Counted from the stretch's first letter, positions 15,175 through 41,165 are shown. The stretch: 64,000 nucleotides of DNA from an uncultured virus (IMG/VR IMGVR_UViG_3300038679_000356) (IMGVR_UViG_3300038679_000356), one strand, 5' to 3'. The notes: generated from the sequence alone by a model not told the origin. Numbers and translations are program-made.

Positions 15175-17337
15175 CTACGACATCGCAAAAACAAATAACG
15201 GATCAACGTAGAGGTATCCGGTTGGATCATACCAATCGAAGTGCATTCTAGCCGTTATCGGTTGAGACGCACTATTGACGGTGAATGGCAGGATCAATTT
15301 CAATGGTGTCAGTCCGGTATCATTATTCCAGACCGAAACGCCATCATCTTCCCACCACCCTTCAGTTTCAGAAAGGTATGTTTCCTTGTGCCAATTTGCG
15401 CCATCATAATATGGAACCTCAATCTCTATCCTGAATCGATTGTGGAGATTATAGGTAGGTGAGAACAGTTTATGTGCGACATAAACAGTAAGCGTGGCGG
15501 CTCCAGTTGACCCAGGAGTCCATTCCAGTCCACGGAACGGTTTAGGTGCAAGAACGAGTGGGAATAGATGGTAGTCGCTAAAACCGGCGTTTGCATTGAA
15601 CTTAATCGCAGCAGCCGCACCTCCGGTCCTATAGGCATTCCACGACTGACCGATATAGTAGCGATTTGTTCCGTACCACTTACCAGTAATATTATCTACA
15701 TTGTTGATGAGAATTGATTCGTCCCATTGAGGTGTTGTATCCCAGTAAGTCATAGTTAGATTGTAAGGAACGTCAATCTGATCAATGATTAGATGCCCAG
15801 CATATCCGTGATAACGGTGCCAGGTTTGCGACTCCCATTCAGAAGTTGGGTCAATTTGGGCTGTTTTAATGTAGATATTTGCATATGATTGATATAACTT
15901 TACGCCAACTCCATAACTATTTTGATTTCTAGTGCGAGGTGAATTTAAGTACCAATCATTTACCTCAAGAAAATTCATATATCTACAATATATAATTCCC
16001 TTGATTGAAGCATTCTTTATGACAGCCCCTTTTTTGTATGCACTATCAAATGGATCGCGGAAATATAATCCCTGTTCGTAGGCATGCCACGCAGTAACCT
16101 CATCAATTACGAAGTTATTTCCAAGATAAAGCATCATAGCCGTACCTGAACTGGAAATAAATCCAGTGCTGGCACATTTTGCAGAAATACGTTTAACGAC
16201 GCATGTTGGGATAGACTGGTATGACGAGTACGCATCATAATAGTACATATACAGTAAACTACCACCAAAATTAGCTATATCACCAGTATCAATGGTAATG
16301 TCGGTAATATTCCATTTTCCCATTCCGGAATCATTACTACCCCTACTTATTTGAACACCATAACTAAGCCAACCTCCAGTAACTGCTGGACGATTATAGA
16401 ATCGATGCATGGTCAGCGTACAATTATGGACTTCCATGTTTAGTCCATTAATGGCTATCGGAGCATAGAACGAGGTGTATGAATAATTTTGACCAATCAA
16501 TTTCATGTCATTATTAGTGTACGTAAACTCTGTACGATCACCAGAGTTAGAAGTGGCATATAAAAACATGAATGTATTGGACGTTCCGCCAAAACTAGAC
16601 ATGTAAAAGACATTGTTATCAATCGTGATATTTCTTGCAAATGCAATATAAATACATCCGCCATAACCGATGACGCTATTGTGTGCTGTATTTCCGTTAT
16701 ATCGTCCACTGTATTGGATATTGCAATCTTTGATCGTCACATTTCTGGCGTAACGGAAGATAATTGAGCCGGACTGATATGATGTATTTGTAGTATATGA
16801 CTCGTTATCAAGTTCAACTCCATTGTCCGTCCACTTACAATTCGTCATGAAGTAGTTGCCATTATGGTAGGCGGTATCGTTCGATTGGTATAACGCTTCT
16901 GCCTGGAGTGTGCCATAGGAAAAATTACAGTCTCCACTCGACGGACGATTGTACCAGATTCGGTGCGTTCCGAAATCATTGATTGGAACAAAGCGAAACA
17001 CTGAAGTCGCAGTAGCAAAATTACATTTGCAATAATCGTCAGAATCAGCATCCCATGCAGATTTCGCTTCGGCTGGAGCGCGAAGATACATATGATCTGT
17101 TGACTTTGGCATACCGATGAGGAAGATATAACTTCCTGTGGTGTTGGTTCCATCCGGAATGGTTAAGGCGGTGGTATGATTGCGGCGGCACAGATAAACT
17201 GTGTTATTTGTCATGGAATTTGCCGCTGGAAGCGTGTTGAGCGCCAGGGCTGGGGTAGATCCATCACCTGGTACGCCAATAGCTGCGTCTACATATTTCA
17301 CCGTACAATCTTGAAGTCCCATTCTCATCGTAGCCAT
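15175..17337 (-). CDS. Putative tail spike/adhesin with parallel beta-helix (pectin-lyase-like) region
   Basis: YVD....GDGSTP..A N-terminus; NVTIKDC/NITIDNN beta-helix rungs; Tyr/Asn/Thr-rich. Confidence 0.6.
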   Translation of the reverse strand: MATMRMGLQDCTVKYVDAAIGVPGDGSTPALALNTLPAANSMTNNTVYLCRRNHTTALTIPDGTNTTGSYIFLIGMPKSTDHMYLRAPAEAKSAWDADSDDYCKCNFATATSVFRFVPINDFGTHRIWYNRPSSGDCNFSYGTLQAEALYQSNDTAYHNGNYFMTNCKWTDNGVELDNESYTTNTSYQSGSIIFRYARNVTIKDCNIQYSGRYNGNTAHNSVIGYGGCIYIAFARNITIDNNVFYMSSFGGTSNTFMFLYATSNSGDRTEFTYTNNDMKLIGQNYSYTSFYAPIAINGLNMEVHNCTLTMHRFYNRPAVTGGWLSYGVQISRGSNDSGMGKWNITDITIDTGDIANFGGSLLYMYYYDAYSSYQSIPTCVVKRISAKCASTGFISSSGTAMMLYLGNNFVIDEVTAWHAYEQGLYFRDPFDSAYKKGAVIKNASIKGIIYCRYMNFLEVNDWYLNSPRTRNQNSYGVGVKLYQSYANIYIKTAQIDPTSEWESQTWHRYHGYAGHLIIDQIDVPYNLTMTYWDTTPQWDESILINNVDNITGKWYGTNRYYIGQSWNAYRTGGAAAAIKFNANAGFSDYHLFPLVLAPKPFRGLEWTPGSTGAATLTVYVAHKLFSPTYNLHNRFRIEIEVPYYDGANWHKETYLSETEGWWEDDGVSVWNNDTGLTPLKLILPFTVNSASQPITARMHFDWYDPTGYLYVDPLFVFAMS

Positions 17338-17477
17338 AATTTTTCCTCACTGGTCTTTTTTAACATATTCAATCTATTTGATCCGCTATCCTCGCGGATC
17401 ATTTCGTGATCGTGATTATTTCTGGACATTCTGTTGAATATTGTTCAAGTCCATAATCACAAAAAACTACCGTTTCC

Positions 17478-18584
17478 TCACGCCTGGTATCTGAGTAGAA
17501 GGACGCCGTTGGCTCCGGTTGCGCCAGATGCACCAGAGGCATATGCTCCATAACCACCAGAACCGGTATTGGCAACTGGTGCGGTGAAGTTCTCACCACC
17601 AGTTCCACCCTTTGCGTATTCTATGCTGTTGCCGTCAAGGCTCCGAGTGAGACCTGCTCCACCAGCGCCTGGAGTACCACCACTTGCAGTTCCGCCGACG
17701 CCTCCGGCACCTCCACCGCCAGATCCGGCATTGTCACTGTAGCCTGCTTGATTACCACCAGCATATCCCTGACCTGCAGTTCCTGCACCACCAGTGGAGG
17801 TGTACCAGCCACCGCCACCACCAGAGCCACCGGGTCGACCATTTTTACCTGCGTTGTTGGCACCGTTTCCGCCGCCACCACCGCCAACGGAGGTGTTGCC
17901 GTTGAACGAGGAGTTGCCTCCATCAGTTCCTTGTTGCGACTGACTTATTAGACCACCAGCACCGCCAGCTACCAGTAACCAGTCTGCATTCGTTACAGGT
18001 ATGGTGAGAACAAGATCATCGTTCACCAAGAATCTATGCAGAATGTAGGTGACGCCGAGAATAGTTATAACACTGATGTCACCACCAGAGTTAGGAGGTA
18101 TAACACCTGTCATATCACCACCGACATACCATTCATCGACGGCAGCTTTGCGAATCCAGATACGTCCATACCGCTGACTGATCTTGGTAATCCCGGAAGG
18201 TATGCCGTTCAGTTTGGCACCTACCTCTGCAAAAACAGATGGCTGTCCTAAACCTTTCCAAAAGGCAGCCATGTTGGCGTTGACTGGAACGGCAACATCG
18301 TTGTCTACCGGGAGTGTCAGGTCGTTTGCACTCGCGTAGTTACACTCTACAGTCTTGCTGATATCGGTAAGCTGTACTCGATATGACGCATCGACTTGTT
18401 CTGTCACTTCTTCGATAGCTCTACCGAAACTTTCATATGGAAGGTCATTCCAATGCGTACCCGTTACACCCAACTTCCATCTGCCGGTGTCGGTTTCACG
18501 CCCTATCTCGTTCTCGTCCAGTATAGGATTAGAAGAGGTCCAGTGTGCAGCGGTTCCGCGCCGTGGTTTAATTACATCAGACAT
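17478..18584 (-). CDS. Tail fibre: Mtd/hyaluronidase-type N-terminal domain + gp10-like beta-sandwich + Gly-rich domain
   Basis: IKPRRGTAAHWTSSNPILDENEIGRETDTGRWKLG; LLVAGGAGG...GGGGG...GANGVLLLRY. Confidence 0.8.
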   Translation of the reverse strand: MSDVIKPRRGTAAHWTSSNPILDENEIGRETDTGRWKLGVTGTHWNDLPYESFGRAIEEVTEQVDASYRVQLTDISKTVECNYASANDLTLPVDNDVAVPVNANMAAFWKGLGQPSVFAEVGAKLNGIPSGITKISQRYGRIWIRKAAVDEWYVGGDMTGVIPPNSGGDISVITILGVTYILHRFLVNDDLVLTIPVTNADWLLVAGGAGGLISQSQQGTDGGNSSFNGNTSVGGGGGGNGANNAGKNGRPGGSGGGGGWYTSTGGAGTAGQGYAGGNQAGYSDNAGSGGGGAGGVGGTASGGTPGAGGAGLTRSLDGNSIEYAKGGTGGENFTAPVANTGSGGYGAYASGASGATGANGVLLLRYQA

Positions 18585-18614
18585 ATATGCACCTCTATTG
18601 TTACGTATTGAATA

Positions 18615-21608
18615 TTACGGGGTTCCTCCATCGATATCTCTTGTACCGATAGAGTCTGGATCACCACCGTCAAAATAACGTGTAGGACTAGCATCAGGAT
18701 CACCGCCATCCAGAACTGAGATATTACTTTCGAGTTCGCCGACTTCGTTGTACGTCGATGGTTCGCGTAATAAACGGTCGAGGACGGTGATTTGATCATC
18801 TGTTGGGATTGTTCCACGGAAAAATATGACGACACCCATGGTACCCTTCGCATAGTAAGTGGCATATCTTCCAAATGCGATTGGAAAATTTTCGTCATAT
18901 ATATCTGTCTGAAATGCGGTAACAGGAGAGCCCTTAACTCCATTTGATATGGGCGAATATGCAGTGCCGTCTCGACGAACTCCTGTTGTAGCCGGTACAT
19001 TCAGGCTTAGGCTGCTTCCTGTGACTAATGCGTAGTTGGTGTCGGGGTTAGTGACACTGCGGAAATGCCATAACGATGTATTATTTACTTGTTGCTCAGC
19101 CTCTATTGCATCGGGACGTGTACCTGTGCTGAAATGAGTGCTAATAAGTCCGCCACGGCGTGACAACTCTGCCGTAGTCCATAACACTAACCAACAAAAG
19201 TCATCGGTTCCGACTTTCTTAAACATGTCCGTCATATCTGTGCCAAACGGAAGAGTTGCATAATTGGAACCGCCCAAGTACAATCCGTCGGGCGTTATGG
19301 TTGCAGACGTATTTACTAAGTCAAATCCTCCGATCATATCTGAAAGGAATCCGCTACGGAACCACATAGCCTTCATATATGCAGGCCACGTTACTTCCTC
19401 AGTTGGCGCGGGGGCGTCAGCATTGCCAATGTAGCATTCTAGCTCGACATCGGAGCTGCGGGTTTCGCCATCTTGGACAGCGTAATCAAGCAGGTACTCT
19501 GTAAATGGTGCCTGCAATACCGTGTACTGGTCCAGAGTGTAGGAGGTCGGTGGGGTGAAATCATCCTCACCGTACCTTGCAATTCCCTTCGATATGCGGA
19601 CTTGTCTGATCTTCCCATTGAACGAGGTTGAATTGTAGAATCGTCCAATCTCTAAAGCGGCTGATAAACTAGCGAGTGTGATACTATAAGTGACCGTCTT
19701 TCGATGCACGCCTAAAGTATGCAGATGAAAGTCATTTCCTGACCTCGAAACAGCAACATGTACCCATTGCCCAGTAGGTGTTGCTACGTTTGACTTGAAT
19801 ATTGCTGGACTAATCACAATGGAACCACCTGAAACTATGTAGAATGAGATATTACGCCCATCTACATTGTCATAGTTGAACAGGTGAATACGGTTATTCG
19901 CGTCGCCCATCTGTTGGATGATACCCATTTCGGCGTCAGCATTAAGATAGACCCACGCTTCCCACGTGAAATCTTCGTCAGCCATTGTCCAATCATCGGA
20001 ATCCGCAAAGGAGGCGTAGCCGCTCGTAAATTCTAGCCCATTTACGCCAGGACCAGCGACAAGAGAGGTCGTAGAAGCATTCCCATGTCTGCTGTAGAAT
20101 CCATTGAAGCTCCCCTTGAGCCAGAAATCGCAAACACCGCTGTATGGATTAAGACCACGAAGCGGGGCGGAGTACGGGACGGCAACGCCTGCTTTGGCAA
20201 CGCGGAAATCCTGGAGGGCGTAGCGATAGCTGGCGGCGGGAGGGATGGAAGTGCCTTTGAGAATTCTCAGATTTCTGACTGTATACGCCAGTGTTCCACC
20301 AGAGCCGCCATCATACCGAGCACCGATGTAGACGCCCAAGTTTCCGCCAATGGACGCGGTAGCGTTGCCGCTGCCGTTCGTGAGTTCTGTTCCGTCTACA
20401 TACAGCTTCGGATTTGCGGAAGGCGTAATGACCAACGTCAGCTTTCGCCATTCATCGTTATTCAGACCGGAAAAACTCCATGTCCGTGGTGCCGACGCAC
20501 TGTCGCGATATCCGAAAATGTTGTTACCCATCTGCCAATAAAGGTCGAAGAATTTATTGGCACCGCCGTCTTGATCAGATGCAAGAAGATACCTACCGGC
20601 TGTTCCGGTGCCGGACCCTAACTTTACCTCCCATTCGATCACGGCAGTGGTGAGACTCTGGAAGTCAACAAGCTGTGCTTGTCCAGTGATCCCGATTTTT
20701 GCCTGATCCGTTCCGGCAGGTAGACTGAGCCCATCAGCAGTGATAGCAGCATTCCCAAACAGCGTCAAAGAGTGCGCAGTTCCCGGTGCGTACTTTGCGA
20801 CACCAAATCCGGCATCGGTTGTATGCCCCTGGAATGACCAGTTGCCGACCTCGAATGGATTGTACTGGAAGAGGTCGTGGGGGAGGACCATTGAACCGCG
20901 TGCGGGCGGGGTGAAGTTGGCGGTATAAAGAGCTTCGCCTTTTAGTATCAGCAAGTCAGCCATAACGCCATGTCCACCGCCTTCGTTCCCTGTCGAACAA
21001 GACGCCATAAGCCCGAGATCTTTTGCCACATCGGCTAGTGCGCCGGAATACGTATCGGTGTCTTCTACCTGTCCGTTGACGAACAGCCGCCATGTGTTAC
21101 CAGATCGTGTAACTGCGACATGATACCACGTATCCAGCACAATTGTAGTAGTTCCTTGCAGGGCTGGATCGCGCCAAGTACCGCCTATATTTGAAACGAA
21201 ACGGAACTGCTGGTTCGTGGTTTCCTGACTGTTTATGATCCAACCATCCGTACTAGTTGCCGACCGCTTCCCTATGAAGTTATTCCACCCAGTTATCCAG
21301 CCGGTCGGCTTTACCCAAAACGCGATAGTTAGGTCTGCAGATGCAAAATCGAGATTGGCGGAATACGTGACCTTCGCCCAATCAGATTGTGCAGCACTAT
21401 GATACCCGTCCGTGTCAACGTATCCGCTGCCTTGTGCCGTCACCACATGCGGAACTCTCACCGCCTTCTCATCTGAATCTCCGTAATCGAACAGTCCATA
21501 GGTGTCAATGCCCGACTTCCGCAGTGGGAGCTTCAAGACTTCTTTCGGAGCGTGTAGTCCGGGGATGGTGAAGCGAAGTGGTATAGGCATGTCGGTGTAG
21601 GTACTCAT
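18615..21608 (-). CDS. Multi-LamG/ConA-like lectin adhesin with interrupted DUF2341-like scaffold and C-terminal DGG repeats
   Basis: TIAFWVK..WYHVAVTRSG..LFVNG, FTWEAWVY..WVHVAVSRSG..G.I..VRISKG.ARY...FTPP; ends LDGGDP..FDGGDP..IDGGTP. Confidence 0.85.
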   Translation of the reverse strand: MSTYTDMPIPLRFTIPGLHAPKEVLKLPLRKSGIDTYGLFDYGDSDEKAVRVPHVVTAQGSGYVDTDGYHSAAQSDWAKVTYSANLDFASADLTIAFWVKPTGWITGWNNFIGKRSATSTDGWIINSQETTNQQFRFVSNIGGTWRDPALQGTTTIVLDTWYHVAVTRSGNTWRLFVNGQVEDTDTYSGALADVAKDLGLMASCSTGNEGGGHGVMADLLILKGEALYTANFTPPARGSMVLPHDLFQYNPFEVGNWSFQGHTTDAGFGVAKYAPGTAHSLTLFGNAAITADGLSLPAGTDQAKIGITGQAQLVDFQSLTTAVIEWEVKLGSGTGTAGRYLLASDQDGGANKFFDLYWQMGNNIFGYRDSASAPRTWSFSGLNNDEWRKLTLVITPSANPKLYVDGTELTNGSGNATASIGGNLGVYIGARYDGGSGGTLAYTVRNLRILKGTSIPPAASYRYALQDFRVAKAGVAVPYSAPLRGLNPYSGVCDFWLKGSFNGFYSRHGNASTTSLVAGPGVNGLEFTSGYASFADSDDWTMADEDFTWEAWVYLNADAEMGIIQQMGDANNRIHLFNYDNVDGRNISFYIVSGGSIVISPAIFKSNVATPTGQWVHVAVSRSGNDFHLHTLGVHRKTVTYSITLASLSAALEIGRFYNSTSFNGKIRQVRISKGIARYGEDDFTPPTSYTLDQYTVLQAPFTEYLLDYAVQDGETRSSDVELECYIGNADAPAPTEEVTWPAYMKAMWFRSGFLSDMIGGFDLVNTSATITPDGLYLGGSNYATLPFGTDMTDMFKKVGTDDFCWLVLWTTAELSRRGGLISTHFSTGTRPDAIEAEQQVNNTSLWHFRSVTNPDTNYALVTGSSLSLNVPATTGVRRDGTAYSPISNGVKGSPVTAFQTDIYDENFPIAFGRYATYYAKGTMGVVIFFRGTIPTDDQITVLDRLLREPSTYNEVGELESNISVLDGGDPDASPTRYFDGGDPDSIGTRDIDGGTP

Positions 21609-22792
21609 GGGAACGCCTCCGCAGGTATCGTAAGCGAGAATTTATATGACCATTCGCTGTATGGTGTTGGAGTATTGCTTGAGCTGGATGAGCTGGATGA
21701 GCTGGATGAATAAATTGAACTATTACTACTTGACGAGCTACTTGACGAGCTACTTGACGAACTACTTGACGAACTACTGGATGATGGACCTGATCCTGAT
21801 TTTGCCGCTAAGCCCATCCAATTTACTGATGGTCCAAGAGCAGTTAGCGCTCCAGAGACGGGATTTATTTTACACAGTGTTCCAGCATAGGTTCCATCAT
21901 GCCTTACGCCATATAGCTCTCCATTATAAAAGCACATATCTCTGAAATTATATCCAACATTTACAGGAGTACCGAGAACTCCAGTTTCTAATGTGATTGG
22001 ATAAATATTATTACTTGCGCTATAATAAGCGTTTCCACTTCCTTGATCGTAAGCCAATCCTTGACCTTGCGTGAATTCTAGTTGGGTTATATAAGTTATT
22101 GCCGCATTTGACAAATTCATTGAATGATATGAATATGAATTACATCCACTGCCAGTTATATAGCCTACGCCATTTTTAATGGTAAGTGACGCCAATGGAC
22201 ACCATGCGCCACTATTTCCAATGAAAGTATACGCTCCAGTCAATTGGTTTAACTCTACGAGAGCCCCATATTCTATCGGTCCATCATAAGTATTGACTAT
22301 GCCGTATAGTTTATCGCTCGATGGATCGTAAGCTAATGAACGAACAGAATTGGTATTAGTTGCTCCAATAAGTGTCCTGTCTCCAGTGGATGTATCGACA
22401 GAATATAAATTAGAGCCGGAGTCGGTTGCAAACATCATACCAGGAACTTCAGCCGCAGACGAACTACTACTTGATGAACTTAATGATTCGCTGGATGAGC
22501 TTGATAAACTGACAGAAGAATAACTTGACGATGACATTGAACTACTGGACGGACTTGATTGACTTGAATTACTTTCTGATGAACTGCTAGAAAAACTACT
22601 TGACTTACTTCCAGAAGAACTGGATGAAAAACTGGATGAGCTGGACGGTGTTTGACATGTAAGACAATCTGAAAAAACATCTTGAACAGATGGAATAACC
22701 ACTACGCCAGGACCAGTGCCAGAATAATAATAGCACTGTCCATTTATGCGAATCACTTCGCCATAATATTGATCTGCTACAATTGGGTCCAT
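21605..22792 (-). CDS. Cys-socket + poly-Ser + beta-propeller adhesin
   Basis: N-terminal G..IRING.CY...CLTC; LYSVD..TG..T.IG / SLAYD...LYG blades; two Ser tracts. Confidence 0.75.
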   Translation of the reverse strand: MDPIVADQYYGEVIRINGQCYYYSGTGPGVVVIPSVQDVFSDCLTCQTPSSSSSFSSSSSGSKSSSFSSSSSESNSSQSSPSSSSMSSSSYSSVSLSSSSSESLSSSSSSSSAAEVPGMMFATDSGSNLYSVDTSTGDRTLIGATNTNSVRSLAYDPSSDKLYGIVNTYDGPIEYGALVELNQLTGAYTFIGNSGAWCPLASLTIKNGVGYITGSGCNSYSYHSMNLSNAAITYITQLEFTQGQGLAYDQGSGNAYYSASNNIYPITLETGVLGTPVNVGYNFRDMCFYNGELYGVRHDGTYAGTLCKINPVSGALTALGPSVNWMGLAAKSGSGPSSSSSSSSSSSSSSSSSSSSNSSIYSSSSSSSSSSSNTPTPYSEWSYKFSLTIPAEAFP

Positions 22793-22793
22793 A

Positions 22794-23492
22794 TTACGGA
22801 ACTCCAGTTGGCGTAAAAGTTATATCGAATGTTGCACCATAAAGTCGGAATCCATCCGTACCGTCTATTCCGTTAAATAATTGTACTGACATGCCATAAG
22901 ATAGTGAATACCAATTCCATGTGCTTGAGTCGTAGTAATACCAATCATATCCGTCATAATTCCAGAATGAAGAATATCGATGTCCATCAGATGGTCCAGA
23001 GATATACTCATAACCAGGTCCAGAATCGCCTGGTCCCTCACGATATATTGACGTTTTCCACTGCCATATGATTCCAGACGTAAATGCGCCAGTGTCAGTA
23101 TATCCACTCATTGTCGCATATTCTGGGAAATTATTTGCAGACCCTCCAAGAGGATAATTTAGAGTAACGGTAGGATAACTCGCCCCAAAAGAACTTGATG
23201 AGCTTGAGCTTTGTGAGCTTGTCGACATTGATGATCTTGATGATGATAATGACATTGATGAACTACTGGACGACAAAGGCGTGCATGGCAAATAAATGTA
23301 ACCTATCGTTCCGCTGCTAGATGAACTACTGCTAGATGAGCTTGGGAGCGTTGAACATTCCTCACAAGTTTCATATGCCCCCTCAACAGTAGCTGGCGTC
23401 AACGGCTCATTAGTCATTGCATCAAAAACATAACAGATCCCGTCAACCTTTATGACGGTCCCTGCATTGTAATTAATGATGATATTTGCCAT
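22794..23492 (-). CDS. Cys-socket + poly-Ser + YIYLPC strand + Tyr/Trp-rich domain
   Basis: GTVIKVDGICY...CEEC, Ser tract, GYIYLPC, Ser tract. Confidence 0.75.
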   Translation of the reverse strand: MANIIINYNAGTVIKVDGICYVFDAMTNEPLTPATVEGAYETCEECSTLPSSSSSSSSSSGTIGYIYLPCTPLSSSSSSMSLSSSRSSMSTSSQSSSSSSSFGASYPTVTLNYPLGGSANNFPEYATMSGYTDTGAFTSGIIWQWKTSIYREGPGDSGPGYEYISGPSDGHRYSSFWNYDGYDWYYYDSSTWNWYSLSYGMSVQLFNGIDGTDGFRLYGATFDITFTPTGVP

Positions 23493-23504
23493 TTATTTCC
23501 CTGA

Positions 23505-24413: not shown

Positions 24414-24434
24414 TTTTCATCTCCAAATCATCTC

Positions 24435-30501: not shown

Positions 30502-30518
30502 GAGATCCTTTAAGGAAT

Positions 30519-31112: not shown

Positions 31113-31140
31113 AATATATTCTAATTTAAATAAAAGTCAA
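31113..31140 (-). promoter_or_regulatory. Promoter TTGACT-N16-TATATT
   Basis: The -35 box contains the TGA stop of 31137..31391. Confidence 0.75.
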
Positions 31141-32197: not shown

Positions 32198-32431
32198 ATG
32201 AAGACAGCAATCATATTGTTCATGATGGCGGCATCGGCATTCAGTGCGGAAAGCAGAATCTCAAAAATCGTCAGAGTGATGAATACGTCCGACAAAGAGA
32301 CTTCCATAAAATGTGTGGAAATTTTGTCAAAAGAATTGAAAGAAGAGAAAGAAAGGACGGCGGATGAGATCCAGCGTTTAAAGGAGGAAATAACACTATT
32401 GAAAAAAGATGGTTTTATTGCTTCAAAGTAG
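32198..32431 (+). CDS. Small secreted coiled-coil protein
   Basis: MKTAIILFMMAASAFSA signal peptide; GGAGAGGG RBS. Confidence 0.55.
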   Translation: MKTAIILFMMAASAFSAESRISKIVRVMNTSDKETSIKCVEILSKELKEEKERTADEIQRLKEEITLLKKDGFIASK

Positions 32432-32487
32432 GGAAAAGGGGATGCTTCGTGGAATTCCTCATCATAACGATATAGGAATCCCAACAT

Positions 32488-35427
32488 ATGTCAGAAAAAA
32501 TCATCCTCTTTGGCGAAGATATCCTGAAACGCAACAGTGACGGTAATCTTACTTACGCTGGACGTAAAATTCTTGATGACGAAAACGCACGCTTTGCCGA
32601 TCTCCATGATGTAAATATTCCCTCTGAAATATCTTCTCTTGATTCCGATAAAATCATCAAAGCAAATTACATTTCAGCCACGCCGTATGGAGATGCATCA
32701 TTAGGTAATGTTACCCTATCTTCTCCTGGTCCAATCAACTACTATACCGATTTGATTGCTGATGTTGGGGTCGGCGAAACCGTACTTCCAGTAAGTAATG
32801 CAACAAGTTTTGTGGGAGTTACCCAGGTACTTGTTCATCAAACGCAAAATTACAGATGGCATAACAACACGTCTGACCCTACCGAAAGTAGGATGAAGTA
32901 TGAAATAAGGAATGTGCTTGGCGTCGATGTGGGAAATAATTTGATCGTCCTTGCCGATCCATTGAATACAGCGTATAAATCAGACTCCAATGGAAACAAA
33001 AAGTTTAACACAAAAACACAGATCGTATCTGTTCCGCAATACAATACTCTGACTATAAACGCCTCTCTTTCGTGTAAGGCATGGGATGGATATTCTGGTG
33101 GAATAATTGTTTTTCGTGCTCGCGTATTGAGCGGTAACTCATCCATTAATGTGACTGGATTGGGATTCCGTGGGATAATGACTCCACACGCATATGGAGC
33201 TGGTGAAGGGTGGGATGGATTAGGTGATACGTCATACAATCGAGGTGGTGGTCAAGGTAATGAGGTAGGCGGTTGGAATTATGCCTCTGGTGGACACCAT
33301 GGCGCTGGTGGATCGGTAGGCAATGGCGTAGGTGGTGTCAGTTATGGTTTGGATGATGCGGATTTGGAAACATACCTGACGCTTGGTGGCGCAGGTTGGT
33401 CTGATGCCAGCGCCAACGCCGCCGGAGCTGTGTTAGCCTTCGTAGAATCGTTTTCAACATGGTCAGGATCGTGGATTGCGGAAGGAACGATTGTTGGCGT
33501 GCGAGGCGGTGGTGCTGGTGGTTCGATATTGATCTACACCCCAACCAATCAAGTTCCCAACATCGGTTATGTTTCTGTAGCTGGCGCAGGAACAGCACCA
33601 TATGGCTCTGCTGTTGGCTATCAATTAACAACTCAACCTACGGAAGAACCGGTAAAACAATATGTTCTTGGACAGAAGGTAAGTGCTATATTAGATGCAG
33701 ATAAAGATACAGAAATCCCCACGTCCAAGGGGGTAGCTACATTTGCTCTTGCTCGTGATGGATCTAATTCAATTACCGGAAATCTTATTCCAGACACAGC
33801 AGGAACCAGAGACCTTGGAAGCTCTGAAAAACCATTTCGAGATATCTATGCTTCGGAAGGAAGTATATACCTTGGGGAAAAAGCAATTTCCATTGTTGAT
33901 GACAATATCCACAAAAGTGGTGAAAAAGTCTTGGATACTGGAAATGCATTGTTTGCCGATATTCGAGATGTAAATATTCCGACCACACTTATTCAAGCTG
34001 ACAATAATAAAGTTTTGAAGGCAACGTTTGAAGTAGAGAACGTATATGGTGACGAATCAGATGGAGACGTAACAGTTTCTGGAACCGAAATCATCAATTC
34101 ATATACCGATTTGATTTCCGATGCTTCTGTTGGCGCTACGACTATTTATGTTCGAGATTCATCTGGTTTTCAGGCTGGTAACGAAATACTTATCATCACT
34201 TCGCAGATTTATCGACAAACAACTGTAGATAACCTTGGGTTGTATGAGTTCGCTACAATAGCCGAGGTTCCTACCTCCGCTCAAATCATTCTTTCTGGTG
34301 GTTTGTCGAGAACTTATCTATCTGACGCCAATGGCAATAAAAGCAACAATACAAAAACTCAGATAGTTAAGGTTCCTCAATACGGAACGTTAAATGTATC
34401 TGGAACTATCACCGCTAAACAGTGGGATGGCTACTCGGGTGGCGTCATTGCATTCATGGCAAAAGATCTTGTGGGAAGTGGTTCCATTAGCGTAAAAGGG
34501 AAGGGATATCGAGGGGGAGCGGTAAGCGCCCAGGATGGAGAAGGATGGTTTGGGTCTGATCCCAATGAAGCGGCACAGGGATCTGGACAAGGTCCTGGGG
34601 GAAGTCCGCAATCTTCTGGTGGTGGTGGTCATCTTAATAATGGTTCGGCGGGATCATACGGTGCATATTATGGACTTGCGTATGGATTAACTGTCGATCA
34701 AGTTGAAACTAATATTACGTTTGGTGGCGCTGGTGGAGCCGCTAATGCCAACAATTGGGGTGCTGGAGGAAATAGCGGTGGCATAATTTTTACATACATA
34801 CAAGATCCATCGGTTTTCAACGGTGCTCTTGATGCAAGAGGAAATGATGGTGTTCCTAATTCTGGCGGAAATGGTGGACCTGGCGCTGGTGGAAGCATCC
34901 TCATTTATCATGACACTGTCGTGAGTTCCACGTTGAATGTTCAAGGCGGCGCAGTAACGGGAACTGGCTCGGTAGGGAGAAGCAAGCAAACATCTCCTTC
35001 TCCCGCAACAACCAGACAGTATGAACTCGGCGCGAAAATTTCCACTTCGCTCGACAAAACGAAGGATACGGAAATTCCAACGTCAAAGGCGGTTGCCGCC
35101 TACTGCCTTCTTCCGATGCCTCCTATCACCGTAGACGTCGCGTCAAGAGGATTAACATCAGAAGATTCCGGTCATATTCTCGACACTATCTATGCCGACG
35201 GGACGGTGACGTATTCGATTGATGTAGGTGTGATGGCGCAATATGACGAATTCATCATCAATCGCCTTACCGTTCAATCTGTTTTAGTTTCATCGGCGAC
35301 TGGTGTCACAATTAACGGAATCGATGGAGCGACCATAGAAATTACAGATCAGTTTGGAATGATCACCATTCGAATGTACGGACCGAATAACGCGCAGGTA
35401 ATCGGCAACTTTACGACGGTGATCTGA
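32488..35427 (+). CDS. Tail fibre with two ~370-aa Gly-rich-ended repeats, a shaft motif and a C-terminal gp10-like domain
   Basis: YGD.S.G.VT...YTDL..D...SD.NGNK..NTKTQIV.VPQY...WDGYSGG twice; GNLIPD...DLGS.EKPFRDIY. Confidence 0.8.
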   Translation: MSEKIILFGEDILKRNSDGNLTYAGRKILDDENARFADLHDVNIPSEISSLDSDKIIKANYISATPYGDASLGNVTLSSPGPINYYTDLIADVGVGETVLPVSNATSFVGVTQVLVHQTQNYRWHNNTSDPTESRMKYEIRNVLGVDVGNNLIVLADPLNTAYKSDSNGNKKFNTKTQIVSVPQYNTLTINASLSCKAWDGYSGGIIVFRARVLSGNSSINVTGLGFRGIMTPHAYGAGEGWDGLGDTSYNRGGGQGNEVGGWNYASGGHHGAGGSVGNGVGGVSYGLDDADLETYLTLGGAGWSDASANAAGAVLAFVESFSTWSGSWIAEGTIVGVRGGGAGGSILIYTPTNQVPNIGYVSVAGAGTAPYGSAVGYQLTTQPTEEPVKQYVLGQKVSAILDADKDTEIPTSKGVATFALARDGSNSITGNLIPDTAGTRDLGSSEKPFRDIYASEGSIYLGEKAISIVDDNIHKSGEKVLDTGNALFADIRDVNIPTTLIQADNNKVLKATFEVENVYGDESDGDVTVSGTEIINSYTDLISDASVGATTIYVRDSSGFQAGNEILIITSQIYRQTTVDNLGLYEFATIAEVPTSAQIILSGGLSRTYLSDANGNKSNNTKTQIVKVPQYGTLNVSGTITAKQWDGYSGGVIAFMAKDLVGSGSISVKGKGYRGGAVSAQDGEGWFGSDPNEAAQGSGQGPGGSPQSSGGGGHLNNGSAGSYGAYYGLAYGLTVDQVETNITFGGAGGAANANNWGAGGNSGGIIFTYIQDPSVFNGALDARGNDGVPNSGGNGGPGAGGSILIYHDTVVSSTLNVQGGAVTGTGSVGRSKQTSPSPATTRQYELGAKISTSLDKTKDTEIPTSKAVAAYCLLPMPPITVDVASRGLTSEDSGHILDTIYADGTVTYSIDVGVMAQYDEFIINRLTVQSVLVSSATGVTINGIDGATIEITDQFGMITIRMYGPNNAQVIGNFTTVI

Positions 35428-36917
35428 TGATTAGGGCGACGACATATGGGATCATCGCCTCCACACGTGGATTGCATCCAACTCCAAGTAGCTCGTCAAG
35501 TTCATCGAGCTTATCAAGTCTATCTAACTCGTTAAGTTTATCAAGCTTATCAAGTTCTAGCAGTTCGTCAAGCTTGTCAAGCAGTAGCTCGTCTAGTCTA
35601 TCATCCAGCTCATTAAGCGGTAATTCATCAAGTTCCAGTGGCTCTTTTATTTTATCCAGCTCATCCAGCAGCACTAGCGCCAATCCGTATATTAAACATT
35701 GCTGGTGTTTGATAAACAGGTATGGTCTCGGTCCGTCAGAATATGACGTCTTCTCCTCGGGGTGCGATTATCTCGTTGACATCCAGTTGTTCCCAGATTA
35801 TCCGAAGGTGGCGTACGTTAATAGATATTCCATTGGAGTTGACGCAGTAACATACGTTTATAGCGATATCCCGACTTGCAACACTGGCGATGAATGTTTT
35901 GAAGGGGTCGGTTTCTGCAGTAATATGTTTGATCCATCATCAAGTTCATCAGGATTATTAAGCTCATCGTCGAGTTCTTATAGTTCACTCAGCTTATCAT
36001 CCAGTTCATTAAGTAGTAATTCATCAAGTTCGTTAAGTTTGTCACTCAGCCTATCATTAAGTTCGTCCAGTTTGTCTTCCAGTAGTTCTGCTGGATCTAC
36101 CACGATTGGGTTTATTGTATCTGGTTCCTCATTCTACGACAATCCAAATGGATTGTATTGCGAAATCGGAACTTATAAAGCGCACCCACTCTACCATTAT
36201 AACAGTGGTAGCGCTGACTTCTATATTTATTGGGATGACACTTGTACTGGTTATGGCTACGTTGGACCGACCTGGTGGATTGGATACACTGGCTACGGCG
36301 AAGACTACGGCTGCCCAGCAGCTATCGACTACGTTGATGGATCTTCTGCACTACCGCCAACAGGTCTTTGGAGTTATGACGCGACATTAACACAGACCAC
36401 ATGTGGCGCTACATCGAGCAGCTCAAGTTCATTAAGCAGCAGTTCATTAAGCAGTAATTCATCCAGTTTATTGAGCTTGTCCTCCAGTTCATTTAGTTTA
36501 TTAAGCTCATCGAGTTTGTCGAGTTCGTCGTCCAGTTCTTTAAGCTCATCAAATAGCAGTAGTTCTTCCAGTAGTTCATCTAATTCCAGCAGCTCGTTGA
36601 GCAGTTCCTCATTTTCAAGTAGCTCGTTAAGCAGCTCAAGTAGATCCAGCAGTAGTTCGTCCAGCAGTAGTTCGTCCAACAGTTCGTCAAGTTCAAGTAG
36701 TTCGAGCAGTTCGTCGAGTAATTCCAGCAGCTCATCGTCACTAACTTATGAACAAACCATTTCCTATATCTGGACAGGCAACCTTCAACCGACACCACGT
36801 GAACTAGATGTGGATGGTGGCACGCCCACTACCACTAATTATGAAACAGATTTTTATGGCGGAACGCCAAGTGATACCGAACAAATTATTAACCTAGACG
36901 GCGGCGGCCCGCTGTAA
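35427..36917 (+). CDS. Ser-rich protein with GIIAS N-terminus and C-terminal DGG repeats
   Basis: MIRATTYGIIAST; three Ser tracts; ends VDGGTP..FYGGTP..LDGGGP. Confidence 0.75.
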   Translation: MIRATTYGIIASTRGLHPTPSSSSSSSSLSSLSNSLSLSSLSSSSSSSSLSSSSSSSLSSSSLSGNSSSSSGSFILSSSSSSTSANPYIKHCWCLINRYGLGPSEYDVFSSGCDYLVDIQLFPDYPKVAYVNRYSIGVDAVTYVYSDIPTCNTGDECFEGVGFCSNMFDPSSSSSGLLSSSSSSYSSLSLSSSSLSSNSSSSLSLSLSLSLSSSSLSSSSSAGSTTIGFIVSGSSFYDNPNGLYCEIGTYKAHPLYHYNSGSADFYIYWDDTCTGYGYVGPTWWIGYTGYGEDYGCPAAIDYVDGSSALPPTGLWSYDATLTQTTCGATSSSSSSLSSSSLSSNSSSLLSLSSSSFSLLSSSSLSSSSSSSLSSSNSSSSSSSSSNSSSSLSSSSFSSSSLSSSSRSSSSSSSSSSSNSSSSSSSSSSSSSNSSSSSSLTYEQTISYIWTGNLQPTPRELDVDGGTPTTTNYETDFYGGTPSDTEQIINLDGGGPL

Positions 36918-36927
36918 GGAGTGGAAT

Positions 36928-39129
36928 ATGGCAGATCCAGTATTGGCAAACATTAGGGTAAGGCAAGGAACACATGCGGAATGGATAGCGGCAGATCCAA
37001 CGCTATTAGCTGGCGAAGTTGCATTCGTCACCGATGCGAAAAAGTTTAAGATCGGCGACGCGCTCAATCCTTATTCTGTGCTTGACTTTACATACACAGG
37101 TCCATACCTCACCGCAGATCGCCACGAAGCCATTGCATCTACCGTCAATGCAGGTGAACTTAACGCCCTACTAGCCTCAATTCCGAAGAACCTAAACGGT
37201 TACGATCTGCATATCGACATGGCGGACGGAGACTATGTTTTCGACGACTTCATCAGGCTGTTTGGGTTCCATGGCGGAAACGTCTACATCAATGGCAATC
37301 TCACCGAAACCGACGCTACGGAATTACACACCACCCAAGCTGTAACAGTGACTTGTACGGTAACGGCATCGCAGTCGTCCTGGCAGGGAGCCTTTGATGT
37401 TCGGGGAGGTTCAGCCCGCGTCATTGTTCAAGATATCAAGATCACGATTGCTGACGCCCTTGGCATATGTAATATATTTTCCGACGGTGCAGTATGCCAG
37501 GTAAAATACTGCTACCTCCTGGGGTCCGGAGTGACCGCAAATGCCAGTTATGGTTTCGTGGCGCTAGACGCTTCTGGACAAATGGACAAAACCTATCTGT
37601 CAAACATGCGGATTGGTGTTACAGCAGCGGGCTGTACGGTACGCTGCAACAACTGCTCCTCCACTGGAACGTTGCCATATTTCGGGATGCAAGGCACGGG
37701 TGGCGGCAACGTAATCACCACAGGATCTGAAGTTACAGGCTCATATCGGCAGATGTATGTTAGCTCCGGCGGTTGGGTTAATGCGGATAAATTGTACGCA
37801 AACAAAACCGTCAATATCCCGGCTGGCACAACGGCGGCAGAATTTACAAATATCGTTAACGACCAACCGAAAAATCTCAATGGTTACAATCTTACGTTCC
37901 AGTTCGCGGACGGTACATACACCTGGAGTTCCAGGATTACGGTATTCAATGGGTTTGTGGGTGGTCAGATCGTAATCGCTGGCAATTCCGCCGATGGTAC
38001 AGCCCTACATACCGTGCATTCCGTAAACATTACATGTTCCGATACCGCGACGACATCAGGGGTATTTAATTTTTACCAGTGTGCCTGTGCAATAACGATC
38101 CAGTACATGAAGATCACTGGTGCCGATAACGTTGCTGGTGGCTACTGCGTCTACGCAGACACGGTAAACAGGTTAACCGTGCAATACTGCTATCTGAATC
38201 ATGCAGCTACAACAGGATCAGGAAGTGCAGGTGTCCGGTTCAATAACTGTTTCGGATTTATCAATCTAACGTATTTTAGTGGCGCAAGTGCCGGTTGTTC
38301 TTCCACGAATGCATTAACTAGAATGGACAACTGTGCGTCCACGGGAACATTGCCGCTCATCGGTTTATCAGCTAGCGTTGCCGGTTTCATCGGAGTTAAC
38401 GGTACCTGGTGTGCTGGTTCCACACAGGATTTCGCGGAAAGTGGTGGTGGTGTAATTAACGGTGGCAGGCTTCTCGCTAACCTCACCGTTAATTTTGACA
38501 ACAGCATGACGGCTGCGCAGGTCAACACGATTATCGGATCGTTGCCGAAGAACCTGAACGGCAAGACGCTGACGCTGCAGTTCGCTGCCGGTACCTACAC
38601 CTTCAACGCCAATATCGCTGTTACGTACTTCTTCGGTGGTATCATCAATATCTATGGCGTTACCGCCGAGGGTACGACAGCATATACGACGCAGACTGTT
38701 ATTTGGAATTCTACCACGGCGTCTACGGTCCGAAATTTGTCCGTACAGTACAACGCTTGCCGTGTCTATATCCGCAACATCCGGTTCAACGTGCCGGATG
38801 TAGCCGATGCTCGTGGTGTTGAAATGAACGGCAATAACTATGCGTATGTTGAAGCTTGTTACGCCGCAGGCGCTGCAAAAACCAATGCGAATTATGGTTT
38901 CAGTTCATTTAATCAAATATCAACCGTCCTAAATACATACGTCTCAAACGTGCAATATGGCATTCTAGCGCAACGCGGCATCCTGTACTCCAACACGAAT
39001 CCAAGCACGGGTACGAATCCAAATTATGGACTACGTGCCTCAGAAGGTGCTCGCATTGCCAAAAATAGCACGCAACCAACCGGCACAACCGCCAACGAAA
39101 CGATTTCAACCTTCGGAGAGATCGGATGA
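36928..39129 (+). CDS. Tail spike: Mtd-type N-terminal domain + three PKNLNG beta-helix modules
   Basis: IRVRQGTHAEW.AADPTLLAGEVAFVTDAKKFKIGD; PKNLNG..L....A.G.Y three times. Confidence 0.8.
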   Translation: MADPVLANIRVRQGTHAEWIAADPTLLAGEVAFVTDAKKFKIGDALNPYSVLDFTYTGPYLTADRHEAIASTVNAGELNALLASIPKNLNGYDLHIDMADGDYVFDDFIRLFGFHGGNVYINGNLTETDATELHTTQAVTVTCTVTASQSSWQGAFDVRGGSARVIVQDIKITIADALGICNIFSDGAVCQVKYCYLLGSGVTANASYGFVALDASGQMDKTYLSNMRIGVTAAGCTVRCNNCSSTGTLPYFGMQGTGGGNVITTGSEVTGSYRQMYVSSGGWVNADKLYANKTVNIPAGTTAAEFTNIVNDQPKNLNGYNLTFQFADGTYTWSSRITVFNGFVGGQIVIAGNSADGTALHTVHSVNITCSDTATTSGVFNFYQCACAITIQYMKITGADNVAGGYCVYADTVNRLTVQYCYLNHAATTGSGSAGVRFNNCFGFINLTYFSGASAGCSSTNALTRMDNCASTGTLPLIGLSASVAGFIGVNGTWCAGSTQDFAESGGGVINGGRLLANLTVNFDNSMTAAQVNTIIGSLPKNLNGKTLTLQFAAGTYTFNANIAVTYFFGGIINIYGVTAEGTTAYTTQTVIWNSTTASTVRNLSVQYNACRVYIRNIRFNVPDVADARGVEMNGNNYAYVEACYAAGAAKTNANYGFSSFNQISTVLNTYVSNVQYGILAQRGILYSNTNPSTGTNPNYGLRASEGARIAKNSTQPTGTTANETISTFGEIG

Positions 39130-39164
39130 TCAGGCAATTTATGAGAATATTTACGATGGGGTAA

Positions 39165-41165
39165 TTGGTTATGGATAATTTATACCTACTTACTGACGAA
39201 GGTGATACCATAAGAGTAGCTGATGAATGCTATCAGCGTGGCTCCGTAGTTATGGCAATACCTGATACTCCTACGATTCAGGAGGCGTACAGTGAATGCG
39301 CTGAATGCTTGCAGGGATTGGTCGGCATCGAAACCGATGTCAATCAATTATCGGTCATGGAATCCAGCCAAGCGTTTTTCCAAGTAAGGCTCACTAGGAA
39401 GCCATACTATCCCGTCATGGTGCATGTTGAGAGAATCTCTGGAGATGTCGACCTGAATATAATCGGCGTAAGATATCTTCATTTCGATCAGGAAAATTAT
39501 GGTGAATACCAGACTGTCATCATCCAGGCAGAACTGGATTTGGACCCATCTCCTGGGCAAGCCGTCTTTCGTTGTTCTAGCGAAGGGCTACCTGGAGTCT
39601 ACGCAGATGTTACCGTGACTGAAGATGATATTGATATTCTCAATATTTCTGTTTCAGCCACTGCCGTATCAATTCCTGAAGGCGGTACTGCCACATTCCA
39701 GGTGAGGGTAACGGCAATGCCGCTCGAAGATCTTGTCGTTAGTGTTTTTCGGTATTCCGGCGATACCGACATCACGGTGCAATCCGGCAGCAGTTTGACT
39801 TTCACATCGGTAAATTGGAACGTATACCAGACCGTTACACTGGCCGCGGCGGAAGATCCAGATGCCGGTTCGGGAACCGCCATCATAAGATGTTCCTCAC
39901 CTGGAGTGACCGACAAAGATATCACGGCTACTGAAGTGGAAAACGACACCACGCTCACCGTGGCAGCCAATACCGGTGGTACGACCAATCCGAGCGGGGC
40001 GGTGGTTGTCACAAAGAATGTAGCCAGGGCAATAGCGGCAACAGCCAATACTAATTACTATTTCAAGCAATGGGCGGCAACAAGCGGATCGCCAGCCATT
40101 GCCAATGTTTACAACGCAAGCACAACCGCCACGATATCGGCTCCAGGTACGGTAACTGCCAATTTCGTCTCCAATTACTACGGAAACGGTTCTGACGGAG
40201 ACGCCACCATATCAGGTGCAAACACCGTACTGAACACATCAACAGATCTAACGGCGGATATCGCATCCGGCGCGACAACGATCACCGTTCGATCCACGAC
40301 CGGTTTCACTGCCGGAAAATCAATCATCATCCACCAGACCCAATCTTATCGTCCTTCTGACGCAGCCTCCGGAAGATGGGAAATCAGAACGATCAATACG
40401 ATTGTCAATTCCACATCGTTGACGGTTACGTCCGGAGTATCAAGGGCATATTATTCCGATAGCGATGGGAATAAGCAAAGAAGTACCAAGGCACAAATCA
40501 TACTTCTAAAACAATACAAAACTCTAACAATTTCTGGTTCAATTACATGTTCTGCCTTTGATGGCTACTCAAAAGGCATCGTGGCAATTTCCTGTTGGAA
40601 CCTGGCTGGAGCTGGAGCAATTCATGCCAATGCAAAAGGTTTTAGGGGAACGACAATGGGTGAAGGATGGAGAGGTATAGGTGATGGCACGGTAGTTAGT
40701 AATGGAATAAAAGGCGGAGGAGGCTTTGACCAAACCGGAGGCGGAAATAATCAAACCGGTGGCGGCGGCGGACACTTAAATAATGGAACTTTTGGCAGTG
40801 CGGCTAATACTTACGGAGGGACGGCTTACGGCATTACAGAGGCGAATGTATATACCCAACCTATGCCAGGTGGTGGTGGATCTGGATTAAATAACCCAGG
40901 ATACAGTGGTGGTGCCGGAGGTGGAATTATTCTTCTGATGGTAAATAATCCTGCAAGCTATACCGGTTCTCTCAGTTCTACGGGAGGCAATGGTGCTGGA
41001 GGGGATTACAATTGTGGTGGTGGAGGTGGTGCAGGTGGATCGATTGCTGTCTTTACACCATCATCTTTCTCCAGGACGATGACGGTGACTGGCGGGTTGA
41101 GATATGACGGCGGTCCAGCCGGAGCTGGTTCCGTTGGCAGAAAGCTTGTTAGAATCCAAGCTTAA
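39165..41165 (+). CDS. Cys-socket + 2 Calx-beta-like domains + InlB-B-like repeat + Gly-rich module
   Basis: GDTIRVADECY...CAEC; LTFTSVNWNVYQTVTLAAAED; GGTTNPSG..ATANTNYYFKQW; third copy of the YG.GSDGD module. Confidence 0.8.
   Translation: MVMDNLYLLTDEGDTIRVADECYQRGSVVMAIPDTPTIQEAYSECAECLQGLVGIETDVNQLSVMESSQAFFQVRLTRKPYYPVMVHVERISGDVDLNIIGVRYLHFDQENYGEYQTVIIQAELDLDPSPGQAVFRCSSEGLPGVYADVTVTEDDIDILNISVSATAVSIPEGGTATFQVRVTAMPLEDLVVSVFRYSGDTDITVQSGSSLTFTSVNWNVYQTVTLAAAEDPDAGSGTAIIRCSSPGVTDKDITATEVENDTTLTVAANTGGTTNPSGAVVVTKNVARAIAATANTNYYFKQWAATSGSPAIANVYNASTTATISAPGTVTANFVSNYYGNGSDGDATISGANTVLNTSTDLTADIASGATTITVRSTTGFTAGKSIIIHQTQSYRPSDAASGRWEIRTINTIVNSTSLTVTSGVSRAYYSDSDGNKQRSTKAQIILLKQYKTLTISGSITCSAFDGYSKGIVAISCWNLAGAGAIHANAKGFRGTTMGEGWRGIGDGTVVSNGIKGGGGFDQTGGGNNQTGGGGGHLNNGTFGSAANTYGGTAYGITEANVYTQPMPGGGGSGLNNPGYSGGAGGGIILLMVNNPASYTGSLSSTGGNGAGGDYNCGGGGGAGGSIAVFTPSSFSRTMTVTGGLRYDGGPAGAGSVGRKLVRIQA

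Follow-up and report, generated by a model that had tools for sequence, protein, structure and literature searches.

How might the products of thirteen neighbouring fibre-like genes in an uncultured virus be joined to one another? The question is raised by a 64,000-nucleotide stretch of the uncultured virus IMGVR_UViG_3300038679_000356 (IMG/VR), here called the window, in which positions 15175-41165 hold thirteen long fibre-like open reading frames (ORFs) in two divergent blocks. The minus-strand block comprises g1 to g9 (15175-30454) and the plus-strand block g14 to g17 (32488-41165). A reading made from the sequence alone had recognised thirteen putative structural genes in two divergent clusters, which our analysis bears out with nine ORFs on the minus and four on the plus strand. 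It had also proposed that their products form a scaffoldin-like, tree-shaped apparatus, held together by five kinds of matching terminal motif and domain. We find that one of these pairs, a C-terminal DGG tail and an N-terminal Mtd_N domain, is strongly supported. A second, between a cysteine (Cys) domain and an orphan ß-strand, is moderately supported, and a third points to an adaptor for a downstream binding head. On balance, we somewhat favour the view that the cluster holds the fibre and adhesin genes of a very large phage, and that the encoded proteins are joined via DGG/Mtd_N, Cys domain/orphan strand and g7/g6.

In the window, g3 (997 amino acids (aa); 18615-21608, minus strand) and g15 (496 aa; 35427-36917, plus strand) both end in three tandem Phi-DGG-x-P motifs, which occupy the last ~33 aa of g3 (18618-18716) and positions of about 36804-36914 in g15. 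The genes that follow, g2 (368 aa; 17478-18584, minus strand) and g16 (733 aa; 36928-39129, plus strand), both start with an Mtd_N domain (PF18454). The domain sits at the extreme N-terminus, at aa 5-39 of g2 (18468-18572; E = 2.4e-06, 27.8 bits, above the gathering cut-off of 26.3) and aa 9-44 of g16 (36952-37059; E = 5.9e-10, 39.3 bits), and PHROG profiles match both proteins at their positions 1-60. The first ~60 aa of g2 match PHROG tail fiber and tail spike families. The 64 ORFs called in the window include exactly two with a threefold DGG tail and exactly two with an Mtd_N-like start, and each tail gene lies directly before an Mtd_N gene.

The same adjacency recurs far beyond the window. 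Of 80 viral loci gathered by an Mtd_N alignment alone, 76 were assessable, and in 64 of these the upstream frame carries at least two [DNEY][GA]G motifs within its last 45 aa. Counted as unique tails, 41/47 upstream of Mtd_N bear two or more such motifs, versus 10/704 tails of other ORFs. Six of these ten background tails also precede Mtd_N genes, and two are the ends of Gly-rich domains. The proteins upstream of Mtd_N genes vary in length between 60 and 2349 aa and, apart from their tails, seem to be unrelated. One example is found in L001, a part of a 255-kb viral contig that was reached via a homologue of g16 (36% identity, 1e-89). Here, a 2349-aa protein ends in poly-Ser followed by three DGGxP motifs, and a 179-aa gene with an Mtd_N start comes directly next. 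Among eleven cultured-phage junctions, which were hand-picked and are not a random sample, a terminal Phi-DGG-xx is present at seven. These are gp48 to gp49 and gp49 to gp50 of Arthrobacter phage Shambre1, gp29 to gp30 of Arthrobacter phage Cole, gp39 to gp40 of Microbacterium phage Hubbs, gp43 to gp44 of Stenotrophomonas phage AXL1, a junction in Pseudomonas phage Epa43, and the step from tail endopeptidase to hyaluronate lyase in Streptococcus prophage Javan511. The upstream adaptor protein of a further locus, L006, had no match among cultured phages.

Several observations weigh against a general DGG/Mtd_N rule. Adjacent genes share ancestry, and the 64 loci therefore collapse to families: the upstream tails form about 17 clusters, of which eight, together with L036, are clearly positive, two are degenerate and six are negative. 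At the remaining four cultured-phage junctions (BPP-1, Syn19, a crAss-like phage and Gordonia phage Pleakley) the plug is absent. BPP-1 is the very source of the Mtd_N name, and its upstream protein Bbp9 ends in GLADLGGIA, with no DGG repeats. In addition, the number of DGG motifs per tail ranges from one to four, which fits poorly with a rule of three plugs for a trimer.

The adjacency across unrelated phages nevertheless gives strong support to the docking pair suggested by the sequence-only reading, in which the DGG tail would be a plug that binds the Mtd_N socket of the next gene product. The ß-prism of Mtd presumably attaches this protein to the tail fibre (PMC10743442), and g2 and g16 resemble Mtd of BPP-1 (see also PMC2408619) in that they start with the part presumed to make this attachment. 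Unlike BPP-1 Mtd, whose head is a C-type lectin, the heads in the window are a Gly_rich_2 domain or a triple repeat, and no diversity-generating retroelement was seen near g2 or g16. We found no description of the link between DGG tails and Mtd_N in a limited literature search, none of which was aimed at the motif itself; the accession PF18454 was likewise not found as a whole word in the literature searched.

Two further loci contain related arrangements. In L052, the gene for a 123-aa protein with two tail DGG motifs (2343-2714) precedes a fibre gene with an N-terminus other than Mtd_N, and the DGG plug may thus serve other sockets as well. In L001, the end of a 1139-aa protein (1291-4710) consists of a poly-Ser stretch of 89 residues and, behind it, a tandem DW(D/N)GN(D/N)I peptide. 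The gene after it (4721-5728) encodes a 335-aa protein with the type of repeat seen in g16, and the two may form another plug-socket pair.

The second pair was proposed to consist of a Cys socket and a YxYxxC strand. A ~48-aa N-terminal domain, which shows an invariant G, C-Y and C-x-x-C upon alignment, is common to five proteins of the cluster. Four of them are encoded on the minus strand: g4 (395 aa; 21605-22792; domain at 22649-22792), g5 (232 aa; 22794-23492; domain at 23346-23492), g8 (479 aa; 24763-26202; domain at 26059-26202) and g9 (1379 aa; 26315-30454; domain at 30299-30454). The fifth, g17 (664 aa from the ATG at 39171; 39171-41165; domain at 39171-39317), lies on the plus strand. 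A profile of these five domains retrieved 126 cluster representatives at E <= 0.001, eight of them at E <= 1e-10, among 1.84 billion proteins, and 39 of the 126 contain poly-Ser. Nineteen proteins are multi-unit. In arrays in which the units are separated by linkers (P0041, P0108, P0076 and P0115), a Phi-x-Y-x-C strand is located ~12 aa ahead of each unit. The full unit thus comprises four Cys, and the N-terminal form is short of this strand and of one Cys with it.

The missing first strand resembles three orphan YxYxxC peptides that are embedded in poly-Ser, one in g5 and two in g8. The g5 peptide, at aa 65, is part of GYIYLPC (aa 64-70; 23283-23303) and lies between two poly-Ser tracts, the second of which leads to a small C-terminal domain. 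Those of g8, at aa 50 and aa 208, occupy aa 50-56 (26035-26055) and aa 208-214 (25561-25581), again on the minus strand. In an AlphaFold2 (AF2) monomer model of g5, computed from a 41-row alignment, residues 1-50 reach a pLDDT of 92-96 and the C-terminal domain is poorly predicted. A block with a strand at residues 64-69 stands out at a pLDDT of 88 between linkers at 59 and 56. Together with the DSSP assignment, these values suggest that the strand pairs with the N-terminal Cys domain. A fold search of the g5 model against 48,161 PDB representatives gave no match at Z >= 3.

The Cys domain also occurs in combination with the first docking motif. P0112, a database protein of 105 aa, consists of a strandless Cys domain joined directly to a DGG tail with three motifs that is nearly identical to that of g3. 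This fusion suggests that the modules have been shuffled by recombination, and P0112 would represent a minimal adaptor with one socket-type and one plug-type module. Elsewhere in the window, a 378-aa protein (49782-50918; phrog_2087) contains the peptide EYIYKRC, which resembles an orphan donor strand. It adjoins a gene (50926-51462) of the PHROG category 'virion structural protein', and the resemblance may be due to chance.

Strand complementation between these elements is thus moderately supported by sequence and modelling. The family of Cys domains is real, its N-terminal members look like a truncated four-Cys unit, and the g5 strand is confidently predicted. The stoichiometry fits less well, with only three orphan strands for five acceptor domains in the window. 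Orphan strands are also rare among the 126 database matches, where we found five loose candidates, of which only g5 itself is convincing, and the L001 record yielded no Cys domain. Lastly, since g5 was modelled as a monomer, its strand could dock only in cis, and the model does not distinguish cis from trans.

This leads to the question whether the proteins of the cluster are connected at all. They might instead be independent fibres, each anchored through its own N-terminal module, with the Cys domain as a common anchor and the YxYxxC and C-terminal peptides as linker features or decayed domains; there would then be no tree. The position of the Cys domain agrees with this, as it begins within 15 residues of the N-terminus in 103 of 112 single-domain proteins, as in anchor domains. 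The shortage and rarity of orphan strands agree with it too, and the first strand of g8 starts two residues past the CxxC of its own domain, like a truncated tandem unit. However, independent anchoring leaves unexplained why DGG tails on unrelated upstream proteins are linked to an Mtd_N start in the next gene. An isolated 12-aa peptide in poly-Ser would moreover be unlikely to persist without docking, and AF2 predicts a confident strand at this place. Finally, g15 and P0112 consist of little beyond tethers and docking motifs. We therefore regard wholly independent fibres as unlikely, though as deserving serious consideration, and continue with the reading in which the proteins are joined.

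A third connector may be provided by g7 (108 aa from the ATG at 24761; 24438-24761, minus strand), a small conserved module. The sequence-only reading had assigned it to a hydrophobic tail, as a 113-aa adaptor. The module belongs to a family with 13 homologues at 48-100% identity, and the ESM Atlas shows viral clusters of ~110 aa. As a single-protein query in viral contigs g7 found no relatives; an alignment of its homologues then gave four viral and three metagenome loci. In L090, two tandem proteins of ~360 aa begin with the g7-like module (106 aa), which is fused there to ~260-aa C-terminal domains, and the module is likewise fused in L102. In other loci the module stands alone and is directly followed by a head, which is Gly_rich_2 in L101 (and in L100, where it occurs as a paralogue pair), LamG in L091 and L092, and another head in L093. 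In the window, g7 directly precedes g6 (302 aa; 23505-24413, minus strand), a Gly_rich_2 head (E = 2.6e-23; phrog_2295, 4.6e-49) with no anchor of its own. The recurrence of g7-like modules fused to, or directly before, variable heads suggests that g7 is an adaptor for the downstream head, in this case g6. The adaptor itself is thus real and conserved, but its recurrent partner is not the one first proposed: none of the relatives' loci has a g8-like tail upstream.

For the two remaining pairs we found no support, and both are conjectural. A DUF2341-like domain was thought to be split between the C-terminus of g4 and the N-terminus of g3. Pfam returned no DUF2341 (PF10102) match at E <= 10 for aa 1-120 of g3 or the last 40 aa of g4, although halves as short as these could escape the profile. 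The stop codon of g4 overlaps the start of g3 (ATGA). We also considered that g4 and g3 might be one gene broken by a frameshift, and rejected this because the junction is an ordinary stop/start overlap. The other pair was to join a gp10-like domain in the C-terminus of g14 to a GIIAS peptide. The last 199 aa of g14 match no gp10-like Pfam family at E <= 10, with an unrelated match at 0.13 only, and a single-sequence AF2 model of aa 840-979 is unusable at a pLDDT of 33.7. A search for relatives recovered none for g14 or g15. The claimed docking peptide at the N-terminus of g15 (MIRATTYGIIAS...) has, by eye, a loose likeness to the N-terminus of the 1139-aa protein of L001.

The binding heads are varied, largely as first described. 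In g3, Laminin_G_3 matches in three stretches (E = 4.3e-35; 121.5 bits, above the gathering score), which upholds the LamG head, and the protein also matches PHROG baseplate wedge and virion structural families. Gly-rich heads are confirmed by Gly_rich_2 (PF21722; cut-off 24.3 bits) in g6 (83.7 bits) and g2 (33.7 bits; E = 4.8e-08). The ß-helix head corresponds to g1 (720 aa; 15175-17337, minus strand), which has no recognisable anchor module and gave no match in Pfam, PHROG or PDB sequence searches and no relatives in genome contigs. Its ESM Atlas neighbours are viral and Lentisphaerota proteins of ~700 aa and Pect-lyase/Beta_helix clusters, as expected of a tailspike-like right-handed ß-helix. 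The nearest cluster by features (third by structure) is labelled mostly bacterial, with Lentisphaerota as the commonest group, which hints weakly at the lineage of the host or at relatives among prophages. Two other heads were not confirmed. The putative propeller of g4 rests on a sub-threshold DUF4394 match (20 bits, cut-off 29.6), so that the part of g4 between its two poly-Ser tracts is at most possibly propeller-like, and for the Calx-like domain of g17 Pfam returned Flg_new_2 only.

Besides its Cys domain and Flg_new_2, g17 contains Ig-like repeats and a Gly-rich module like that of g14 (979 aa; 32488-35427, plus strand). This fibre protein is built of two tandem ~470-aa modules, each with shaft motifs and a Gly-rich module, which match the C-terminal module of g17 with 44% identity over 175 aa (3e-33) and 37% over 203 aa (3e-31). 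Searches with g14 gave no Pfam, PHROG or PDB sequence match and no relatives in viral contigs. Behind its Mtd_N domain, g16 has three ~220-aa repeats; its PDB sequence search yielded no more than a weak match (E 0.04) of the N-terminus with a chain of a hyaluronidase. The N-terminal Cys domain of g9 is followed by poly-Ser and six Cys-rich repeats of ~105 aa, each of which begins with CC-x-x-DP...W...GY...AC-x-x-C. With 100 Cys in total, g9 is denser in Cys than is usual for phage proteins that are made in the cytoplasm.

Poly-Ser tethers lie between the domains, as the sequence-only reading had noted, and they are coded by mixed codons. The Ser content of g4, g8, g15 and g5 is 21-43%, with 43% in g8 and 39% in g15. 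All six Ser codons are used in the tracts, which are thus not simple DNA repeats and point to selection on the protein. Apart from the tethers, g15 has a 17-aa N-terminal peptide and two small Cys-containing domains ahead of its DGG tail, g8 two acidic repeats and a 45-aa C-terminal peptide, and g4 a 23-aa C-terminal peptide. Among the papers listed in a search on phage tail fibres, none used the term 'polyserine linker'.

How could these parts come together? In the assembly we propose, a few attachment modules would be joined by poly-Ser tethers to varied heads (LamG, Gly_rich_2, the Gly-rich module, ß-helix and Cys-rich repeats). The anchors or sockets would be Mtd_N, the strandless Cys domain and g7, while DGG tails and orphan strands, possibly along with further C-terminal peptides, would act as plugs. 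Neighbouring genes would encode matching plugs and sockets, so that their products form chains and branches. The C-terminal Phi-DGG-x-P plug of g3 and g15 would bind the N-terminal Mtd_N ß-prism of g2 and g16, respectively. In Mtd of the Bordetella phage this prism is trimeric. Three plugs on one tethered chain could therefore serve one Mtd_N trimer, and in other phages a single plug is carried by proteins that are possibly trimeric themselves. The small adaptor g7 would carry the anchorless head g6. The chains g15 to g16, g3 to g2 and g7 to g6 are supported by the comparative sequence evidence. The orphan peptides of g5 (one) and g8 (two) would complete truncated Cys domains in cis or in trans, through which g8 and g5 may add branch points. 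The scaffoldin-like, tree-shaped apparatus is hence supported in part: neighbouring genes do carry matching terminal motifs and domains, strongly for DGG/Mtd_N and plausibly for Cys domain and strand, but no support was found for the DUF2341 and gp10-like pairs. Stoichiometry and tree topology are conditional on the binding that these motifs suggest.

Where on the virion might such an assembly be located? The PHROG matches of the cluster proteins fall into tail-fibre, tailspike, baseplate-wedge and virion-structural categories, and together with synteny they suggest that the proteins are part of the particle. In L087, a small siphophage-like contig, two Cys-domain proteins are encoded downstream of tape-measure-, Dit- and Tal-like genes, and the neighbour upstream of them begins with ...HLTYTCDE and continues into poly-Ser. 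In L089, a single locus from a four-sequence alignment search, a Cys-domain protein adjoins sheath and baseplate genes. Both contexts support a location of the Cys-domain proteins at the tail.

The same modular proteins could also cover the head or neck as a fuzzy, adhesive coat or as whiskers, with no receptor-binding apparatus at the tail. Such a decoration would be in line with the absence of core tail or baseplate genes adjoining the cluster within the window, which speaks against a tail apparatus. So does the position of the g7-like gene between capsid-like and later structural genes in L091 and L092; in L091 the context lies between head and tail genes, which makes capsid or neck decoration possible. 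L087 adds two C-terminal poly-Ser tails on head proteins, one of nine residues on a major-capsid-like protein (68-1309) and one of 26 residues on a 178-aa head-proximal protein (3028-3564), and poly-Ser in this phage group thus extends beyond fibres. Yet in this very contig the genes of the Cys-domain proteins come after those of tape-measure, Dit-like and Tal-like proteins, and the one in L089 stands beside sheath and baseplate genes. The Mtd_N proteins of cultured phages, moreover, carry minor-tail-protein or tail-fibre annotations and are encoded downstream of Tal-like proteins. We consider a capsid or neck coat rather improbable.

Poly-Ser linkers are similar to the linkers of carbohydrate-active enzymes that bacteria secrete. 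That the proteins are adhesins or enzymes acting outside the particle, for example after release at lysis, is nonetheless highly improbable: although 10/17 scanned proteins (the 13 fibre-type and four spacer gene products) have no Pfam family, 11/17 have no PHROG family, and a protein assembled in the cytoplasm would not usually have 100 Cys as g9 does, no hydrophobic segment like that of a signal peptide is apparent by inspection at any of the 13 N-termini (g10 has one), the Mtd_N, LamG and Gly_rich_2 matches fall into PHROG tail or virion categories, and L087 and L089 show synteny with tail genes. A fibre or adhesin system of the virion, probably at the tail, is the reading with which we proceed.

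The window derives from a very large, uncultivated phage. A protein identical to g7 is recorded on a 340,706-bp contig, and a homologue with 63% identity on a contig of 500,135 bp. There is no close match in culture: a near-DNA search with the 25-kb cluster found no match in 50,697 records of cultured phages, and the DNA ligase of the window is at most 34% identical to that of any such record. Elsewhere, the window encodes a DNA ligase, helicase, sigma factor, RNA ligase, Thg1-like enzyme and methyltransferases, as in large phages. The genes for the Thg1-like tRNA-His guanylyltransferase (53285-54094), RNA ligase (47996-49213) and sigma factor (46944-48023) indicate a very large phage together with the 340,706-bp contig of g7. 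The spacer between the two fibre blocks (30519-32431) contains five small non-fibre genes (g10, a signal-peptide protein; g11; g12, an HslV-like peptidase; and g13). The HslV/proteasome-like peptidase gene at 31388-31957 matches Pfam Proteasome (2.2e-06) and phrog_1040 (2.7e-25). A promoter and terminator scan of 30300-42200 gave counts equal to those of shuffled sequence and was uninformative.

The proposed connectors recall two cellular systems. In cellulosomes, orthogonal plug-socket pairs of cohesin and dockerin on flexible linkers assemble many heads, and in the chaperone-usher pathway donor-strand complementation completes an incomplete ß-domain with a strand from elsewhere. Both likenesses would be functional and do not imply homology; in line with this, Pfam detected no cohesin, dockerin or pilin family in the 17 proteins (E <= 0.01).

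Among phages, a close parallel is provided by KP32, K11 and KP34, podophages of Klebsiella. Here, the first receptor-binding protein (RBP1) has a T4gp10-like branching domain and RBP2 a conserved N-terminal docking peptide (PMC13352976; also PMC6872550). The concept behind the proposed gp10-like/GIIAS pair is thus an established one in KP32. As far as the available text describes the KP32 type, a short conserved peptide docks there on a domain of an RBP encoded next to it, with docking elements that can be moved between heads, and the window's proteins would do likewise. Unlike in the KP32 type, the plug proposed here is C-terminal (Phi-DGG-x-P, in many cases repeated) and would fit into the N-terminal Mtd_N of the protein encoded next. 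A gp10-like domain was not found, and KP32 has no poly-Ser tethers in the descriptions available.

Larger assemblies are known from the branched tailspikes TSP1-4 of CBA120 in the Ackermannviridae and from the hyperbranched fibres of the jumbo phages phiKp24 and RaK2/phiK64-1 (PMC11414711, PMC8825819, PMC9700779, PMC10253068). The window shares clustered RBP genes and a large genome with these phages, in which, by the same partial accounts, the RBPs form one branched complex per virion, as is proposed here. Those complexes are described as trimeric spikes joined via folded N-terminal assembly domains; in contrast, g15 and g8 are mostly tether and short docking motifs. With hyperbranched fibres already described, thirteen genes appear comparable to the known branched systems and not clearly beyond them, and a greater elaborateness of the cluster is not shown. 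The general principle of branching is thus known from KP32-type phages, Ackermannviridae, phiKp24 and RaK2. New are the specific connectors, scaffolds that are tethered and for the most part non-globular, and how widely the DGG/Mtd_N rule applies.

The two main connectors might even be parts of a general assembly code of phage fibres, an idea that we put forward only tentatively. Its first part would be a DGG plug at the apex of the Mtd_N trimer, a rule that would hold from siphophages of Actinobacteria, Firmicutes and Proteobacteria to huge phages. With three plugs in tandem, a single poly-Ser chain could mimic a trimer, so that a monomeric scaffold carries a trimeric fibre. The second part would be a four-Cys mini-domain in separate pieces, an N-terminal acceptor that lacks its strand and orphan strands that act as donors. 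Strand complementation would join the proteins, and a shared metal site or a disulfide might lock them.

Branched complexes of multiple RBPs set the host range of phages, and the rules by which they are joined are known for few model phages. A terminal DGG motif followed by an Mtd_N start would let annotators read the order of assembly in thousands of uncultivated phage genomes, and the DGG/Mtd_N rule would provide a compact, portable connector by which fibre heads could be exchanged. To judge from the split Cys domain and the poly-Ser tethers, very large phages may carry many monomeric heads on flexible leashes, unlike the rigid trimeric spikes investigated to date. If our proposal is true, orthogonal pairs and g7-type adaptors would build a tree of about a dozen binding heads, the assembly order of which would be predictable from gene order alone.

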